A DNA stretch of 64,000 nucleotides from Dictyostelium discoideum (Eukaryota), in NCBI GenBank assembly GCA_000004695.1, contig CM000154.2, positions 3,680,001 to 3,744,000 on the forward strand. Reading direction: 5' to 3'. The notes beneath the pieces were generated by a model. That model was given only the letters and a program-made list of their open reading frames with translations. It did not search any database and was not told the DNA's origin. Positions 13,576 to 33,933 of this stretch are shown one piece after another; the stretch's first letter is position 1, and every line of letters starts with the position of its first letter. Both the position numbers and the translations under genes were made by a program.

Positions 13576-13648
13576 GCCCGTTTAGCAAAGTTGGAATTGC
13601 GGCAGCCTTCTAAGCTGCAGGTCGTGGGATCGAGACCCACAATGGGTG
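13576..13648 (+). tRNA. tRNA-Arg (anticodon UCU)
   Basis: Folded by hand. Acceptor gcccgtt/aatgggt (two G-U pairs). D stem gcaa/ttgc with loop agttggaa. Anticodon stem gcagc/gctgc with loop cTTCTaa (U33, anticodon TCT, purine 37). 5-nt variable loop. T stem gtggg/cccac with loop atcgaga. Discriminator G. Total 73 nt, followed by T-rich run ctttttaaa (pol III terminator). Confidence 0.75.
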
Positions 13649-15902: not shown

Positions 15903-17426
15903 ATGAACAAATTAATTAAAATCATTGTAATTTTTACAATTATTGTAAATGTAATTAATGGTTTAGCATATCCAAAATATAATGCAGAAGAATTAATATT
16001 GGATGGTAGTGGTAGTTTCCCAGCACAATGGTTCACTCAAACATTAGATCATTTTAATTTTCAAAATAATCAAACATTTCAACAAAAATATTATGTAAAT
16101 GATCAATATTATAACTATAAAAATGGTGGACCAATCATTTTATACATTAATGGTGAAGGTCCAGTTAGTTCACCACCATATTCTTCTGATGATGGTGTTG
16201 TAATTTATGCTCAAGCAGTAAGTAGTAATTCTACTAATTTTAAAATATTTAAATATTAAAAATTATATATATATATATATTAAAAATTTATAAAAAAAAT
16301 AAAAAAAAAGTTAAATTGTATGATTGTTACATTAGAACATAGATTTTATGGTGAATCATCACCATTTTCAGAATTAACAATTGAAAATTTACAATATCTT
16401 AGTCATCAACAAGCATTGGAAGATTTAGCAACATTTGTTGTTGATTTTCAAAGTAAACTTGTTGGTGCAGGTCATATTGTTACAATTGGTGGATCATATA
16501 GTGGAGCATTATCAGCATGGTTCCGTATAAAGTATCCACATATTACTGTTGGTTCAATTGCATCATCAGGTGTTGTACATTCAATTTTAGATTTCACTGC
16601 ATTCGATGCCTATGTATCATATGCTGTTGGTCCAGAATGTACAAAAGCACTTCAAGCTGTAACTAGTGCTGCTGAAGATGAATATTTTGCTGGAGGTATT
16701 AGAGAACAACAAATGAAACAAATACTTCAAGCTGAATCATTGGTTGATATTGGTGATTTCTTTTATTGGTTAGCCGATTCGATGATGGAGGGTGACCAAT
16801 ACGGCTACATAGATGAATTATGTAGTCCATTGGTTGACGCTATCAATAGCGGTACCAGTGGTATCGATTTGATTACAGTCTACTCCAATTACACTATCAA
16901 CACTTGGGGTAAAGTTTTAGGTACTCCAGATGAATATTCAACAGCTTGGCAACAAAATGTCACCTATGACCCATCAAAGAGTGCCGATAGAGCTTGGTGG
17001 TATCAAACTTGTAGTTCATTAGGTTGGATGCAAGCTGCACCATCTGAAAATTCAATTAGATCTTCATTGGTAAATATGACCTATTTCCAAACTCATTGTC
17101 AACAATTATTCGGTCAAGCCATTTGGCCTCCAAATGTAAATGCTGTAAATACTCAATACGGTGGTGATCAATCAAATCCATTATTGAATGCAGCTGGTAC
17201 TAATATTTTATTCACCAATGGTCATGCTGATCCATGGAGTCAAGCTTCAATCGTAAATTCAAATTATCCAAATGTTGAACCCTCTGCAATGACCACTTGT
17301 CGTAAATGTGGTCATTGTGTAGATTTAAGAGGTTGTCCAGGTGGTTGTGATTTACCAAATAATTTAGATCAAGTTAGATCACTTTCATTAAAATCAATTG
17401 CACAATGGTTAAATTTAAATAATTAA
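15903..17426 (+). CDS. Serine carboxypeptidase S28 family (prolylcarboxypeptidase-like), secreted, 2 exons
   Basis: Exons 15903..16217 and 16311..17426, with donor gtaagt and a 93-nt intron. Signal peptide MNKLIKIIVIFTIIVNVINGLA. S28 motifs include FTQTLDHFNF, GGPIILYINGEGP, the catalytic-serine region IVTIGGSYSGALSAWFRIKYPH, and C-terminal DPW and HC. Confidence 0.85.
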
Positions 17427-18099: not shown

Positions 18100-18408
18100 T
18101 ATTTTATAATTTATAAAAAAAAAGTCAAATATCTCCAAACTCGTCTCTATTGGTCTTTATCTTTCTTTAAAAACTTAAATCATTGTTTACAAATTGCAGT
18201 AAACAACATTTCGTTACAGTTAAGGGAAATAATATTCAAAAGAACAAACAAAAACAAAAACAACAACAGCAACAACAAATTCTTTCAAACTTGTCTCTCA
18301 TGTGCTGTCTCTTTTCTTTAAAAACTTAAATCACAGTTTACAAATTGCAGTAAACTATATTTCGTTACAATCAAAGGAAAAAATGGTGCAAAGAACAAAA
18401 ATAAAAAG

Positions 18409-18465
<57 letters not shown>

Positions 18466-18600
18466 TCTTTCAAACTTGTTTCTCGTTCGCTGTCTCTTTT
18501 CTTTAATAACTTAAACCATAGTTTACAAATTGCAGTAAACTACATTTCGTTATAATAAAATTAAAAAATAGTGGTAAGAAACAACAACAAAAAGAAGAAC
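18100..18600 (+). repeat. Tandem repeat, about 185-bp unit, about 3 copies, each with a conserved hairpin and a (CAA)n tail
   Basis: Units at about 18100-18290, 18279-18470 and 18463-18600. They share a core ttctttcaaacttgtctct...gctgtctcttttctttaaaaacttaaatca.agtttacaaattgcagtaaac.a.atttcgttaca. GTTTAC-aaattgca-GTAAAC forms a 6-7 bp inverted repeat. Unit 2 carries (CAA)19. Confidence 0.7.
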
Positions 18601-18711
18601 AAAAAATTAATAAATTTAATCTTTTACGTCTCTTATGAGATTTAATTTAAACATATTATTTTCAATTTTTATTAATTTAAATTTATATTATCATTTTTAA
18701 ATTTCATTATT

Positions 18712-19375: not shown

Positions 19376-20825
19376 ACATATTAAAGGATTAACAATAATT
19401 TTTGTTAATGTTGATATATCAGTTGTTGAGATTTGATTTTTATTGAAATCAGCAAAAGATGAACTTGTATTATTGTTTACATTTTTATCTATTATTTTAT
19501 TATTTAAATTAAAGTTTATTATGTTTTCTGTAATTTTGTAAATAATATTTAATAAAATATTAATATTTTTTTTATTTAAAAAAAAAAAAAAATTATTAAT
19601 TATTAAGTAAAAAAAAAAAATTAAACATACTTAATATCATTTTATTTTATTTTTAATTTAAATTATTATTTAATTATTATTTATTTATTTTTTTTTAAAA
19701 AATATTTATATATATTAATATATTTTTTTAAGTAAAAATATATATTATTTTTATTATTATTATTATAAATTATAAAAAATATTATATAAACAAATAAAAA
19801 TTCTTTTATTTAAATAGTAACAACATCAATTAAATTTATTTTTATTTTTATTTTTTTTTTAATTTTAAAAAAAAAATTAAAAATAATAATATTTACATAA
19901 ATAAAATACTAATAATAAAATTATTATTATTATTTTTATTAATATCATTATTATTATTATTATTATTACAATAAAAAATATCATCATCAACCTCAAAAAT
20001 TAAAAATTCACATTTCAAATATTTAAATCTTTACTACCCACATTCTCTAAAAATAAATCAAACAATCCTAGTTTAAAAAAAAAAATAAAAAAAAAAAAAA
20101 AAATTATATATATAAATAAAAATTTAAAAATTTAAAAAATTTAAATAACAAACAAGTAATACATAAATAATAATGGTATATTAAAAAACCATAAACCTAT
20201 ATTTAAAAAAAAAATTATCATTATAATTATTATTATCATAATAATATTGGTATTAAAATCTTATACACAAAAGTATTTTTTTTTTTCTTTTTTTATTTGT
20301 TTTTTTTTTTTTAAAATTTTAAAATAAATAAAAAATTAAAAAAAAAAACAATAAATAATCTTATATATAGAATAAGTTAAAATGTTACCCCATGTAAGTG
20401 TGTGGGTTATGTTTGTTGTTTTTTTTTTTGTTTTGCTAGATTTTTTACATTTATAGGGTGTATGAAAAATGAAATTAGATTTAAGTGGGTGTGTTTAAGT
20501 GGGGGTTAGAATTTTGGTTATTGTATTAGGATTCTTTTGGTTATAGAAGGTGGGGGAAGTGGTTAAACTTTAAATTCAACAATTTCTCTAAATTGAAATT
20601 GTTGTTGTTATATTTAGATTTTTTATTTTTAATTAAAACTTTTTTACATTTTGTAGTTGTTTTAATATTATTTACATTTATAGTTTTTTTACACCATAAT
20701 AAATATTAACTTGCTTTTCAATTTTAATAATCTTTATCTTAATTTAATTTTTGATATTCCCAATACCTTTTTTGGTTTAAATTTTTTTTTTTTAAAAAAT
20801 TAATAAATAAATAAAATAAAATAAA

Positions 20826-22135
20826 ATGGACAGTAATTTAATTAATTGGCTAAAAAAGTGTTCTGAATCTATATTAGATTCTCTGATAATAATTTCAAGG
20901 AATGAAATATTTATATCAAAAGAAAATCTTATTGATTTTTGCAAATCAAAATGGTAAAATATATATATTTATGTTTAAATAAAAAAATAAATAAATAAAT
21001 AAATAAATAATTTTAATATTTATTAACTATAATTATAAATTTTAAATAAAAAAAAAACAAAAATTTAAAGTTATAAAAAAATTGGATTAGGTGAAGATCA
21101 ATTTAGATTATTAAAAAATGAAATATCAATATCATTAGAAAATCATTTTAGAAATGAAAATGAATTAATATTATATAAATATGAACCCGTTAAAGAAATA
21201 AATTTAAAATTTGAAACAACAATTAGAGAATTGATTGAAAATAATATAAAATTAAATCAAATGAGGTTTATTAAAAATAATAATGAAAATAATGAAAATA
21301 ATAATAATAATAATAATGAAAATAATAATAATAATAATGAAGTTAGAATTGATTTAAATAAATATATTCAAAATGGTAATGATAATAATAATAAAAATAA
21401 TAATATTAAAGAAGATTCAGAAATTCAAAAACCAAATAATGAAATTTTAGTTATTGAATTAATACCAAGAAAATGTGATTCCTATTTTTATTATGAAATT
21501 CCATTAATAATTGCAGGTTGTATGACAGCAAAAGAATATTCAAATTTTATTAAAACAATTAATAGAGCCTATAGTGGATATTGGATATTATTTTTAATTT
21601 ATTCTTCGTATGCAATTTCAATTTTAGCCATTGTAATAACAATACCATATTACAAAGCATTTCCAATTTGGTTAATATTTTTTGGTGCAATGATTTTATT
21701 TTCAATATTTCTTTTAATTTATAGATTATTTTTAAGAGTAATTATTAAAAAAAAAGAATTTTTTATTTTTATTTCTATTTAGTTTTTATTTTATTTTATT
21801 TTTATTTTGTATATTAATCAATTTTTAATTTAAATAATAATAATAATANNNNNNNNNNNNNNNNNNNNNNNNNNNNNNNNNNNNNNNNNNNNNNNNNNNN
21901 NNNNNNNNNNNNNNNNNNNNNNNNNNNNNNNNNNNNNNNNNNNNNNNNATAGAAAATTATTGAAAAATCAGTACCACTTGAATTTCATATTGTTTATAAA
22001 AAGAAAAAGTTCCCTCAAACTAAAAATACAATGACAATGATAATTCACTATTTTTATAACTCTAAAAATACAAATGTTACAAATAATATTTACAATGAAG
22101 AATCTCAAATGAAAATTAATGAAATTGATGTTTAA
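20826..22135 (+). CDS. Hypothetical two-TM-helix membrane protein, paralog A of a tandem triplet, 3 exons
   Basis: Exons 20826..20953 (phase 2), 21071..21737 and 21953..22135; intron 2 contains the 100-N gap 21849-21948. N-terminus MDSNLINWLKKCSESILDSLI. The central exon has an asparagine-rich segment and two hydrophobic helices (YWILFLIYSSYAISILAIVITIPYY; IWLIFFGAMILFSIFLLIY). The C-terminal exon is KIIEKSVPLEFHIVYKKKKFPQTKN... Confidence 0.55.
21849..21948. other. Assembly gap (100 N) in intron 2 of paralog A
   Basis: Run of n. Confidence 1.
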
Positions 22136-22309
22136 AAAAAATAAATAAAATGATTAAAAATATTTTTGAAATTTTCCTATTGTTTTTATTTATTACCTTA
22201 AAAAAAATATATTTAGAATTTTTACTAAAAAATTAAAAAATTAAGTAATTGTGTGTTTAGGGTGCAATTTAAAAAAAAAAAAAAAAAAATTAAAAAAAAT
22301 TTTATAACT

Positions 22310-23492
22310 ATGGAAAGTAACATTATAAATTGGATATATAACAGTAATGAATTTATATTGGATATTTTACTATCTTTATCAAAGAATGGTTTTTATATAT
22401 CAAAGTCAAGTTTAAAAAAATTAATTAATTCACCAAATAAAATGTAACTATATTAAATTAGAAAAAAATAAAAAAAAAAAATATCTTAATTTGTAATTTT
22501 ATTTTTTTAAATATTTATAATAATATTTATATTTTATAAAATATTATTATTTATTAGTTTACTAATAACAGTTTGTTAAATTTTTTTTTTGGTAAAATAC
22601 TATTTCTTGAAATGATTTACCTAAAATTTAAAAAAGATATAAATATAAATTAGAAATTGAAAATTATTATATTTTAAAAAAAGTATTTGAAAATTATTAT
22701 TTTAATAGTTCAGAAAAAAGTGAACAAATTACATTAATTAATTTAGATTTTATAAATGATAAAGAAAAAATTAATACCTGTAATGTAATAAATGTAATAA
22801 TAATTAACAATATATGTTTAAACCAAAGACATATAATTAGAGTAACAGAAGAAAGTAGAATTGATCCAAATGGGGTTAAATATGAAATAATTCCAAAAAA
22901 TTATAAAAGCTATTTCGATAAGAAATTACCATTAGAACTGTCACATTTAATATCAAGTAATCAATATATTAATTTTATAAAATCTATTAATTCTGCTTAT
23001 AATGGTCATTGGATTAAATTTTTAGTAATTTTTTTTTATATTATTGGTTTAATGGTTTATTTAATTTTATTAAAAAAAAACATTTTACCAAATCAATCTT
23101 GGATTTTTATTGTAGTTTTATCCTCAATTAGTTTTTCATTAATTATTTTTCATTTAATATATTCACATTTAATTAAGGTAATTTTATTTTTTTAAAAAAT
23201 AAAAAAAAAAAAAAAAAATTGAAAAAATTAAAAAAAAAAAAAAAGATATTAATCATTTTTTATTAAAATTAAAAAAAATAAGTATATTATAATTAAAAAA
23301 ATAATATATGAATTTAATAAAAAATTAATATTTCAAATGAACTATAGTGATTTTCATAAATTTATTGAATTTAAATTGATAAGGAAAAAAAAAAAATTCA
23401 TTCAAACAAATGATAAAATAACATTGGAATTTGTTTATTACCCAAGAAATTCAATTAATAATAATAATAATATAAATGAGTTTAATTTATAA
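22310..23492 (+). CDS. Hypothetical two-TM-helix membrane protein, paralog B, 3 exons
   Basis: Exons 22310..22443 (phase 2, donor gtaact), 22637..23177 (donor gtaatt) and 23283..23492. MESNIINWIYNSNEFILDILLSLS...; IPKNYKSYFDKKLPLELSHLISSNQYINFIKSINSAYNGHWIKFLVIFFYIIGLMVYLILL; C-terminus HKFIEFKLIRKKKKFIQTNDKITLEFVYY. Exon phases match paralog A. Confidence 0.55.
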
Positions 23493-23698
23493 TAATCATT
23501 AGTAAATAAAAATGATTAGTTTAAAATTTATAATATATCAGGTGTTTTTTTATTTTCTTTTTTTAAACCCTTTTTTTTTTTTTTTTTTATTTTTTTTTTT
23601 TTTTTCTATTTTACCACTTTTTTTTTTTACCACTTTTTTTTTTTTCCAAATTTCCTCAAGATAATTTTATAATATAATTTACGTTTTAATTATTTAAA

Positions 23699-24515
23699 AT
23701 GGAAAGTAACATAATTACTTGGTTAAATAATTGTTCTCAAGAATTAGTTGATTCTGTTTTAGCATTATCCAATAATAGATATTTTATTTCTCAAAAGAGT
23801 TTGGAAGATTTTACAATTGAGCAAATGTAAGAAAAAAAAAATAATAATTTAAATAATTAAAATAATTAAAAAAAAATTTTATAATATATATTAATTTTAT
23901 ATAAAATTTAGATTTAACTATTCAATAAGTGTAGAACAATATAATACAATAAAAAATGGAGTTGAAGCATTAGAAATTATAAATGATGATTTTGATCAAA
24001 GAGGAACCAAAGTTGAGATAATATTTCATTATGATGGATTAAATGGTGTAAATAAATGGTATAAAGAATCAATTAGAAAAATAATTTCAAATAATATTAG
24101 TTTAAATACAGATTATGTTATAATTAATAATACAATGATAAAAGAAATTGAACCAAAAAGTAGAAAAATGTATTTCAATCCAATTCCACCAATTGAAATT
24201 TCTCACTTGTTATCAGATGATAAATATCATGATTTTATATTTTCATTAAATAGATCATATGGTCCATATTGGTATGTCTGTTCGGCAATAATTTGCTTTG
24301 GTTTAGCAGTTTTATTTTTTTTCTCTTTTATATTTATTAGTAAAGCTGTTGGTTTTTCATTACTATTTGTTTTTGGTATTTCTAGTGTTTGTCTTGGTAT
24401 TTTCTCATTCATTTATGTTAAATCATTAAGAGTATGTATTTTAATAATTTTAAAAAAAATCATAATTTATTATCTATTCAAATATTAATTTAAATAATTT
24501 ATTTTTTGAAAAAAA

Positions 24516-24583
<68 letters not shown>

Positions 24584-24776
24584 GTATAATATAATAAAAA
24601 AAAAAATTATAAAATTTAATAGATTACTAGAATCAAGTCAAATACCATTACATTTCAGATTCTTAAGAAAGGAAATAAATTTTCCTCAAACAGATGATAA
24701 CCTTACAATGGAAGTTTATTATGATTTTATGAAAAACAATGATTTCCAACAATTTTTATCTTCCTCAACCGTTTAA
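23699..24776 (+). CDS. Hypothetical two-TM-helix membrane protein, paralog C; exon 3 has a 1-nt frame inconsistency at its only available acceptor (possible pseudogene or sequence error)
   Basis: Exons 23699..23826 (phase 2, donor gtaaga) and 23912..24431 (donor gtatgt). The conserved C-terminal coding block 24624..24776 (LLESSQIPLHFRFLRKEINFPQTDDNLTMEVYY..., TAA 24774-24776) is +1 out of frame relative to the only upstream AG (24621-22). ORF 24135..24488 carries the TM helices YWYVCSAIICFGLAVLFFFSFIFI and LLFVFGISSVCLGIFSFIYV. Confidence 0.45.
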
Positions 24777-24918: not shown

Positions 24919-25652
24919 TTAACAAGATTTTAAGAAATAATTTTTTTCATGCCATTCTGAAAAGTTACGAATACAACCACCACCGACAGACGATGTTTTA
25001 CAGTTGGAGTTTTCACACAATTTTTCGTATGCTTTTTATAAATAAAAAAAAAGAAATTAAAAAATTAAATTAGTAAATAAAAAATTAAGGAATGAGAAAA
25101 AAAAAAAAACCTACGTTTATCATTATCACAATACCAACTTGAGTATTCGTTTAATCCATTATGGAAAACTATATCATTGGTATAATAATAATAATATTGT
25201 GGATCTGATTCACAAGCACTATCACCATAAGTAGTTTCTCTAAATCCATAAAGTGGAATTGATGGATTATTTTCAATTGAAATAAGAACGTAATTGGTAG
25301 CTACATAGATATCTCTGTTGGCATATTCTGGTGCTCTATAACATCCACCAACTTGATATGATACATCTGGATTTGATTTTTGCTCGCTGCATGTAATGTC
25401 ATAATCTGAATATTCTGATATAGTTCCATTTGTACCTGTACTATCTAGTGTAACTCTGTAATTATTACTCGAATGATTTATATTTATTCCAAAGCATTCA
25501 CCAATTTGAAAAGCAAATCCAACACCATTTTCTCCATTCGAAACTGTGCAATTTTCGTCCAAATATGGAGTCATATGTAAATAGCTAACTCCTTCAACCT
25601 TTGAATATCCAATTAATAATGTAATAAAAAAAAGAAATATTTGGTATTTCAT
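24919..25652 (-). CDS. Secreted cysteine-rich protein of unknown function, 2 exons
   Basis: Exons complement 25115..25652 and 24919..25031, with donor gtaggt (phase 1) and acceptor aaaaag. Signal peptide MKYQIFLFFITLLIGYSKVEG. The protein is about 216 aa, Tyr/Cys-rich (GECFGININ, GGCYRAPEYANRDIY, ACESDPQYYYYY, SWYCDNDKP-YEKLCENSNCKTSSVGGGCIRNF). No homolog was recognised. Confidence 0.5.
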
Positions 25653-27193: not shown

Positions 27194-30571
<3,378 letters not shown>

Positions 30572-32217: not shown

Positions 32218-33933
32218 TTAAACTGGTTCTATTATTGGGTTTTCTTTACCATTATTATGATTATTTAAATCAGCACCATTATTAGTTGGTTGTAATTGTT
32301 GTTGATTTTGTGATTGTTGATTATTAGTTTGTTGTTGTTGATCTTTTCTAGAACAATTTTTTGGAATAGCACTAATTTTCATTGGATAAATAAAGATTGT
32401 TGCTAAAAGGAACCAAAATGAACTAATACCAAAAACAATAGCATAACCATATTGTGAAGAAATTTTAGTACCATTTTCAAGGGTAATTTGAGTAGCTTGT
32501 AAGATGCTACCAGTGATAGCTGGAGCAACTACAGTTGGAGCGATAAAAGAGATATGCCAAATACCCATATCTTTGCCAATGGTTTTATTTGGTAATGAAT
32601 GAAGTGCCAATGCCCAATCAACACATTGATAAGCACCATAACCAACACCTAAGAAACCTGATAGAATCAACAAACCAGCAAATGAAGGATTGAATGAAAT
32701 TGTGATTAATAAAGCTATAGCCACAACTTGAATACCACTACTAATGTATACTAATAGTTTTGTACTGTAAAAATCAGCTAAATAACCACCAGCGATTGAA
32801 GCGGGTATGGAACACATGACCAACACCACTATGATATAACTATTTGTCATTAAATTCGTTTGACCAATGATATCAGTGGCGAAATATAACAAGAAACTAA
32901 AGATCATGTAGATACCAAGTGTATTGAAGAAACGGGTGATTAAGACCCAATAAAAGTTGAAATAGATACTTGATGGGAGATGCAAAGATTTGAAGAAACT
33001 TGGTAAACTACCATCGAATGACCATTCATCATTAGAATCTTCATGCATTGTACAGATGGTGATCAATGCGGAAATACCAAGGAAGGCAATGGTTGCACCA
33101 TACAAATACCATGTATGAATTACATTTTTCACTTCTAATAAAGTACCAAACAAAATTGTACCAATCAATAGACCCAATGAAAAACCAACACCTAACCAAC
33201 CACTTGCAATACCAGATTGTGAAGGATGTACAACATCTGGAATGATACCAGAGAATGCACCACCTGCAATACCTTGACCAAGTTGATAACCACTACAAAC
33301 TATAATAAATCCACCAATTGAATGATATGGTTGATCAAATGTTGCCTCTAAACATAAAAATATAATCATTATCATCGTTCCAACCAATAGATATGGTCTT
33401 CTTCTTCCAAATGGTGTTTTTGTATGATCACTAATATATCCAAATATTGGTGTAATCAATAAATTTATAAACATTCCACTAATTGGTAATATACCATTCC
33501 AATATGTTTTATCTTCTGGTCTTAATATTGAAACTTGATATGGAATTGCAAATGCTGCTGTTGCACCTTGAACAACACTATATCCAAAAAACCATCTTTT
33601 AAAAAAATTAAAAAAAAAAAAAAAAAACAAATAAATAATAAATTAAAAAAAAAAAAAAATTAATATTAAATTTATTATAATAATTTTATATTTATATATT
33701 TCTATATATGTATATTTTTATAAAATTATAATAATAATAATAATAATAATTATAATAATTAATTACATTGATATTTTTATAAAAAATAAAGATGATGATA
33801 TAAAGCTACTTCTAATTTTAATATTATCACGACTATCTTTACTACTTGCTTCTGATATTATTTCTGAACTTTTTGTATGTTCTGATGAATATGTTAAGGT
33901 GGTTTCTGATGTTGCTGATTCCATTTTATCCAT
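32218..33933 (-). CDS. Major facilitator superfamily (MFS) transporter, 2 exons
   Basis: Exons complement 33767..33933 (MDKMESATSETTLTYSSEHTKSS..., donor gtaatt, phase 2) and 32218..33595. 12-TM topology with the MFS loop-2/3 signature GYISDHTKTPFGRRRPYLL. The C-terminal tail is Q/N-rich. Confidence 0.8.

Follow-up and report, generated by a model that had tools for sequence, protein, structure and literature searches.

What do three adjacent, head-to-tail genes of Dictyostelium discoideum encode, and is one of them decaying? The genes, called copies A, B and C here, occupy positions 20826-24776 of the + strand in an extremely AT-rich stretch of 64,000 nucleotides (the window) from chromosome 5 of D. 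discoideum AX4, and databases, which list no precomputed Pfam domain for them, call them hypothetical or 'transmembrane protein'. An initial annotation had described a triplicated family of Asn-rich membrane proteins that it did not recognise, and had suspected copy C of being an incipient pseudogene. Our analysis shows that the triplet consists of intact three-exon genes in tandem, which have kept their synteny in sister species and are under purifying selection. The best overall explanation of what they encode, and the one towards which we lean, is that they are membrane-spanning genes of the Erf4/GOLGA7 type, to which a role as accessory subunits of Asp-His-His-Cys (DHHC) S-acyltransferases can be assigned by analogy.

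Gene models were obtained by reading the sequence and translating all of its frames, and gave the following features (TM, transmembrane helix; the Erf4-like segments are predicted).

Copy A, + strand, exons 20826-20953, 21071-21737 and 21953-22135: 325 residues as visible
20826-20953, + strand: copy A exon 1, 42 codons plus 2 nt, ending in phase 2, beginning MDSNLINW..., donor gtaaaa
21071-21737, + strand: copy A exon 2, ending in phase 0 after Arg, with an Asn-rich insert at about 21150-21440 and, from sequence and hydropathy, a putative Erf4-like N-terminal half from about 21444, TM1 at about 21582-21647 and TM2 at about 21663-21731
21849-21948, no strand: 100-N assembly gap in copy A intron 2, interpreted by comparison with relatives
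21949-22135, + strand: visible part of copy A exon 3, …KIIEKSVPLEFHIVYKKKKFPQT…stop
Copy B, + strand, exons 22310-22443, 22637-23177 and 23283-23492: 294 residues
22310-22443, + strand: copy B exon 1, 44 codons plus 2 nt, phase 2
22637-23177, + strand: copy B exon 2, putative Erf4-like N-terminal half from about 22872, TM1 at about 23010-23078, TM2 at about 23097-23165
23283-23492, + strand: copy B exon 3, YIIIKKIIYEFNKKL…KFIEFKLIRKKKKFIQT…stop
Copy C, + strand, exons 23699-23826, 23912-24431 and 24585-24776: 279 residues
23699-23826, + strand: copy C exon 1, 42 codons plus 2 nt, phase 2
23912-24431, + strand: copy C exon 2, putative Erf4-like N-terminal half from about 24132, TM1 at about 24267-24338, TM2 at about 24348-24422
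24583-24584, + strand: acceptor AG for copy C exon 3, in frame (phase 0), splicing at which gives P0003/Q54GI2
24585-24776, + strand: copy C exon 3, YNIIKKKIIKFNRLLESSQIPLHFRFLRKEINFPQT…stop, predicted post-TM helix and beta-hairpin of the Erf4-like fold

Exon 1 measures 128, 134 and 128 nt in A, B and C, respectively, and ends in phase 2, exon 2 measures 667, 541 and 520 nt and ends in phase 0 after Arg or Lys, and exon 3 is short. Intron 1 (phase 2) and intron 2 (phase 0) lie at homologous positions in all three copies, every intron is of the GT...AG type, and the exons have a GC content of 12-24% versus 3.5-9.8% for the introns. The encoded proteins are 31-37% identical to each other, and tblastn comparisons between copies give E-values of 1e-10 to 1e-14 for exon 2 and of 1e-4 to 1e-7 for exon 1; judged from these sequences, the paralogy of A, B and C is far beyond chance. 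The tandem triplication of a three-exon gene with phases 2 and then 0, as initially proposed, is borne out by the GT...AG introns and by the tblastn matches down to 1e-14, and the conserved sequence blocks quoted at that time are present in the three copies. Comparing the copies with the window by tblastn, no fourth family copy was found in it.

Each of the three proteins contains two adjacent hydrophobic helices of about 21-23 residues, with Kyte-Doolittle maxima (19-residue windows) of 2.3-2.7, and hydropathy reveals no N-terminal signal-like segment in any of them, in agreement with the two adjacent TM helices noticed at first. In front of the helices lies an N-terminal region of about 115-170 residues, which is specific for Dictyostelium and for which there is neither a match nor a recognisable or confident fold. 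The C-terminal domain of about 150 residues consists of a beta-strand, a helix, the two membrane helices, another helix and a beta-hairpin. The description 'Asn-rich' suits copy A with its 15.7% Asn, although without a 62-residue insert (47% Asn) this value drops to 8.4%; it is not a trait of the family, as copy C contains 8.6% Asn.

Orthologous loci were analysed from D. cf. discoideum (L001), a wild D. discoideum isolate (L002), D. dimigraforme (L003) and D. citrinum (L004). In relatives, the triplet is flanked by a Peptidase_S28 gene on one side and by CfaA_B_C and ribosomal S17e genes on the other, and the neighbours in the window are the same. Ratios of nonsynonymous to synonymous substitution rates (dN/dS) versus relatives are 0.23-0.27 for A, 0.15-0.26 for B and 0.03-0.07 for C (four relatives in the case of C), which makes C the most strongly constrained of the three copies. 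Exon lengths differ from those of orthologues by multiples of 3, except for exon 3 of copy A, and in L001 all three open reading frames (ORFs) are intact, both TM helices included. In D. citrinum, copy B is a remnant (L004 4780-5830) of which TM2 and exon 3 are left, an in-frame stop included, and the N-terminal exons are gone. Another A-like piece of exon 3, also containing a stop, is seen at about 5061-5205 of L004. These remnants indicate that genes have been born and lost within the cluster.

An exhaustive HMMER search with the family profile was performed in 1.84 billion representative proteins, and the spread reported here is limited by the content of that library. At E<=1e-3, 14 proteins were obtained, namely dictyostelid orthologues, distant paralogues, one rotifer protein and P0022, and full-length matches came only from species of the D. 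discoideum group and from D. purpureum, which possesses at least two adjacent members with the N-terminal region. The question of Dictyostelium specificity raised by the initial annotation is thereby answered, within this library, for the subfamily with the N-terminal MESNII.W motif, which was found only in group-4 Dictyostelium (discoideum, citrinum, dimigraforme, firmibasis, and purpureum). More distant relatives with the TM hairpin are A0A816DLW3 from Adineta ricciae (P0021), the two-domain protein P0022 from a Logan assembly, and F0ZWK2 and F0ZWK0 from D. purpureum (P0017 and P0019); the family profile (E 7e-10 to 4e-5) picks up all four, and so does the Pfam profile PF10256 (Erf4). Like the triplet, they have a hydrophobic two-helix hairpin that separates the N-terminal motif from the C-terminal strands, but they lack the MESNII.W region and lie outside the chromosome-5 triplet, and none of them has been characterised.

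It is PF10256, with a gathering threshold of 29.3 bits, that links the family to known proteins. For copy B, it is matched by the full-length protein (E 0.024, 15.0 bits), which is the one weak lead in full-length Pfam scans of the window proteins, and by the segment preceding the TM helices (E 9.6e-4, 19.6 bits), for which it is the only Pfam match. It is also the only Pfam match for the corresponding segments of a copy A orthologue (E 0.043, 14.3 bits), of P0015 (E 7.5e-3) and of P0020 (E 0.14), and the top match for P0017 (E 1.6e-4), P0018 (E 7.8e-3), P0019 (E 8.4e-5) and P0021 (E 3.3e-4). All matches of family members are in a single register, at profile positions 14-74. P0022, which the family profile reaches at E 4.1e-5 among the 1.84 billion proteins, passes the PF10256 threshold with 41.8 versus 29.3 bits (E 1.2e-10). 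When 13 family domains were aligned by hhalign with 11 GOLGA7 sequences, the two profiles matched over 125 colinear columns (Prob 68.6, P 4.6e-5); the GOLGA7 alignment is shallow and restricted to vertebrates, the best 120 matches all being near-identical vertebrate sequences, and its human query sequence is 100% identical to PDB entries 8HF3_B and 9OA6_B. Sequence searches with the triplet profile returned only noise from the PDB (E > 0.6) and nothing meaningful from NCBIfam, and those with P0022 only weak SMAD noise from the PDB. With these PF10256 matches, the family no longer escapes recognition: its conserved core, the C-terminal domain, is very probably a divergent homologue of the GOLGA7/GCP16/Erf4 domain.

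Structural comparison points in the same direction. In the AlphaFold2 model of copy C, the predicted local distance difference test (pLDDT) score is 70-88 over residues 117-262, and the predicted elements are a strand (117-122), a helix (145-159), helices at 162-185 and 189-233, and two strands (238-249 and 254-262). Among PDB structures, its best Foldseek match is GOLGA7 in complex with Zdhhc5 (9oa6_B). GCP16 and Erf4 possess no TM helix but two membrane-inserted helices (α2' and α3' in GCP16), and a three-stranded antiparallel sheet (beta1', beta3', beta2') with flanking cytosolic helices (bioRxiv 10.1101/2022.12.12.520165). As far as the model can be trusted, copy C displays what defines an Erf4-type fold, i.e., a sheet and helices flanking two membrane-associated helices. 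The order of elements (beta1, helix, two membrane helices, helix, beta2, beta3) is shared with GOLGA7/GCP16 (8HF3_B, 9OA6_B), as is a motif in front of the membrane helices, F..(F/L)P.E(L/I)...(I/L)....(F/Y)...(I/V)..(I/L)N..Y. In addition, the end of TM2 has an invariant Tyr, which aligns with Y86 of GCP16, a residue that contacts the polyproline helix of DHHC9; it is the only one among the published GCP16 contact residues that is clearly conserved.

There are also differences from the known proteins. Sequence identity between the triplet and GOLGA7 is about 13%, and GOLGA7, with 137 residues, has no N-terminal extension, whereas the triplet proteins carry 115-170 extra residues at their N-termini. 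In GOLGA7, helices α2' and α3' dip into one leaflet and none spans the membrane; the monotopic association of Erf4/GOLGA7 is not what is found in the triplet, with its two hydrophobic helices of TM length. Between the N..Y motif and the conserved Tyr, copy B has 57 residues where GOLGA7 has 35, and these roughly 22 additional residues of the hairpin segment are enough for two spanning helices whose flanks stay together on one side of the membrane. Yeast Erf4 (8HFC_B), the subunit of the Erf2-Erf4 Ras palmitoyl-transferase, is peripheral, lacks TM helices and is encoded by a single-copy gene, unlike the triplet, and its insertions are located elsewhere, in the N-terminal loop and in the beta1'-α4' linker. 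We describe the triplet as a putative integral-membrane, N-terminally extended and lineage-expanded form of the Erf4/GOLGA7 fold. In such a form, the two half-inserted helices of GOLGA7/Erf4, longer here by about 22 residues in total, have very probably become a full two-TM hairpin, which would leave both flanks in the cytosol, so that the three-stranded sheet could still form. The proteins would bind and stabilise DHHC-type protein S-acyltransferases as accessory subunits, and the lineage-specific N-terminal region, together with the presence of three paralogues, would provide specificity for partners or substrates. Considered by itself, the function as accessory, stabilising subunits of DHHC S-acyltransferases, which is drawn by analogy, has in our judgement slightly less than an even chance of being correct.

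Several results weigh against an assignment to the Erf4/GOLGA7 type. None of the three window proteins attains the PF10256 gathering threshold, and copy C has no PF10256 match at all by sequence. With a profile of the triplet only, the hhalign match to GOLGA7 is weak (Prob 30, P 5.4e-4, 32 columns), the Foldseek match of copy C to GOLGA7 is marginal (E 0.21, prob 0.6), and GOLGA7 was not retrieved with a low-confidence model (mean pLDDT 50) of a copy B orthologue. The GCP16 contact residues K11, F13, R16, Y18, R118 and R121 are not evidently conserved in the triplet. The GOLGA7 hairpin carries palmitoylated Cys residues; they have no conserved counterpart in the triplet, and the hairpin of copy B is devoid of Cys.

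Two other readings of the family have to be weighed in this light. An orphan Dictyostelium family, whose resemblance to Erf4 is due to chance and to the generic look of a helical hairpin, would be in line with direct Pfam matches of the window proteins that all stay below threshold; set beside the single register of the PF10256 matches and the score of P0022, we regard it as improbable. Somewhat less remote, but still unlikely, is the idea that the triplet proteins do descend from the Erf4/GOLGA7 fold and no longer work with DHHC enzymes, but, with a full TM hairpin and a new N-terminal region gained, now serve some other process as membrane adaptors or regulators peculiar to the lineage. The mostly unconserved GCP16 interface would fit, as would the confinement of the family to dictyostelids plus a few scattered matches, and the fairly fast evolution of A and B (dN/dS about 0.25) together with the decay of B in D. 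citrinum is what a dispensable, lineage-specific role might lead one to expect. However, the interfaces of Erf2-Erf4 and DHHC9-GCP16 also differ in detail while function is kept, the Tyr equivalent to Y86 of GCP16 is invariant, and no alternative partner is suggested by the present data. Membrane-spanning proteins of Erf4/GOLGA7 type that would assist DHHC enzymes are the explanation that we prefer.

Is copy C, then, a gene on its way out? The initial annotation had considered the AG at 24621-22 to be the only acceptor available for exon 3, one that leaves the conserved block out of frame, and had concluded that copy C might be a frameshifted, decaying pseudogene or be spliced in a non-canonical manner. 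This AG does correspond in position to the AG preceding the visible exon 3 of copy A. However, intron 2 of copy C offers two AGs upstream of the conserved block, and the other one, at 24583-84, is canonical and in frame, whereas the AG at 24621-22 is merely part of the codons AAT AGA (Asn-Arg). Splicing via 24583-84 yields a protein of 279 residues that is residue-for-residue identical to the annotated DDB_G0290151 product (Q54GI2). The 12 codons gained in this way, YNIIKKKIIKFN, are homologous to the start of exon 3 in copy B, YIIIKKIIYEFN, and in orthologues of A, YKHLHRITGRFN, and the acceptor matches that of copy B. Moreover, the copy C ORF is intact in four other genomes, where its dN/dS is 0.03-0.07. 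Due to the in-frame acceptor, the identity with Q54GI2 and this low dN/dS, copy C is not an incipient pseudogene and is without a frameshift; the opposite view has become very improbable.

The sole frame problem in the triplet is that of copy A, and it is located at the edge of the assembly gap. Exon 1 of copy A has the same length as in L001-L003 (it is 6 nt longer in L004), and length differences in exon 2 are multiples of 3, as said above for exons in general. Intron 2 is filled by an (AAT)n microsatellite in L001, and the gap at 21849-21948 covers such a microsatellite together with the genuine acceptor of exon 3 and some 12 codons (in relatives, YKHLHRITGRFN...). L001-L003 have this acceptor (…ag|TAT) about 40 nt before the place at which AX4 continues beyond the gap, and the AG before 21953 falls within the codons AAT AGA in three relatives. 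In the initial annotation, exon 3 thus began at 21953, behind an AG that relatives carry inside this exon; a short third exon does exist, and its start at 21953 is, from these comparisons, probably an artefact of the gap.

Within exon 3, AX4 reads TTATT at 21960-64, where L001, L002 and L003 have TTAATT, i.e., …ATAGAAAATTATTGAAAAATCA… in AX4, with one A fewer, versus …AATAGAAAATTAATTGAAAAATCA… in L001-L003. The shared part of the exon is consequently 183 nt long in AX4 and 184 nt in L001, at variance with the multiples of 3 by which all other exons differ, and this deletion of 1 nt places the exon-3 start hidden in the gap out of frame. Whether copy A is truly inactivated in AX4 has to be asked, as the additional A is present in the wild D. 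discoideum isolate, D. cf. discoideum and D. dimigraforme alike and as the shifted frame, when read from the orthologous exon start, stops after ...RKLLKNQYHLNFILFIKRKSSLKLKIQ. On the other hand, the deletion is situated 12 nt from the 100-N gap, and reads are typically poorest in such places; the 58 codons downstream of it are otherwise intact, and splicing could still take place in frame by way of the AG at 21951-52. We consider real inactivation possible though rather unlikely. Given the proximity of the contig end, an error in the reference is the simplest reading, and the deletion in copy A probably represents a contig-end sequencing error in AX4. The suggestion of a frameshift or a sequencing error in an A/T-rich stretch, made initially for copy C, does not apply there, but it does apply to copy A beside the gap.

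Existing models of copy B (DDB_G0290155) can be improved as well. The AX4 model (P0009, flagged partial) employs the AG at 22707-08 as acceptor of exon 2 and skips 24 codons that are conserved with A and C. The AG at 22635-36 is also phase-compatible and is backed by homology to the paralogues, by the D. dimigraforme model P0010 and by the ORF in L001, and on these grounds the AX4 acceptor is likely wrong. Recent NCBI strain annotations list products of 182-184 residues for B and of 256 residues for C (L001 6001-6746 and 7311-8343; L002 4501-5352 and 5911-6954). These shortened models result from introns predicted inside the AT-rich coding sequence of the TM hairpin; on direct inspection the L001 ORFs are intact, and the introns inside the hairpin are false. 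No paper mentioning DDB_G0290151 or DDB_G0290155 was found in a literature search. DDB_G0290157 is pkgB and is unrelated to the triplet.

The neighbouring genes in the window, named by the Pfam labels of syntenic genes in relatives, are unrelated to the triplet.

16320-17426, + strand: Peptidase_S28 gene (syntenic label)
25065-25652, - strand: gene of the CfaA_B_C (counting-factor-associated) family (syntenic label)
27194-30571, - strand: gene for a large AMP-binding plus NAD_binding_4 enzyme (syntenic label)
32218-33630, - strand: unclassified, putative multi-TM ORF with a transporter-like look, also unrelated to the triplet

Weak tblastn matches at 32.6-33.0 kb on the - strand were considered as a fourth family copy and rejected, since they are chance hydrophobic matches to this unrelated multi-TM ORF, which has a Gln/Asn-rich downstream tail. 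About 230 bp upstream of the ATG of copy A, a GT-rich block without an ORF (20340-20600) is 82-95% identical in four other Dictyostelium genomes, which is unusually high for intergenic DNA of this genome. The block has no Rfam match and may act as a promoter element or encode a non-coding RNA that annotations lack; an Rfam scan of 17.4-27.2 kb gave one match only, a sub-threshold one due to chance. Farther away, the window contains a tRNA-Arg(TCT) gene (13576-13648), a tandem duplication of 185 bp (18247-18602, 1.9 copies, 86% match) and four further 100-N assembly gaps (14756, 34854, 36194, and 37247).

For the annotation of this locus, the analysis disposes of the copy C frameshift and of the false hairpin introns, identifies a likely wrong exon-2 acceptor in the AX4 model of DDB_G0290155 and traces the frame problem of copy A to a probable error of 1 nt. 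DDB_G0290151, DDB_G0290155 and the third paralogue, broken by the gap, together with their Dictyostelium relatives, gain a testable function as candidate accessory subunits of DHHC palmitoyl-transferases. Literature searches yielded nothing on TM-bearing Erf4-like proteins and no paper that connects Dictyostelium with accessory subunits of DHHC enzymes; among the top ten matches listed for Dictyostelium DHHC enzymes there was none either. The triplet is in this sense a useful functional lead accompanied by gene-model corrections and not a surprising new system, and suggests that integral-membrane proteins, too, can have the Erf4/GOLGA7 fold. More speculatively, and with considerable doubt on our side, the triplet may belong to an unrecognised integral-membrane branch of Erf4/GOLGA7 proteins, present in dictyostelids and sporadically in other eukaryotes, bdelloid rotifers for example, whose several Dictyostelium paralogues would, through their N-terminal extensions, tailor individual DHHC enzymes to different partners or compartments. 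If this is true, the accessory subunits of S-acylation would have a much greater diversity than the one type now known, GOLGA7/Erf4.

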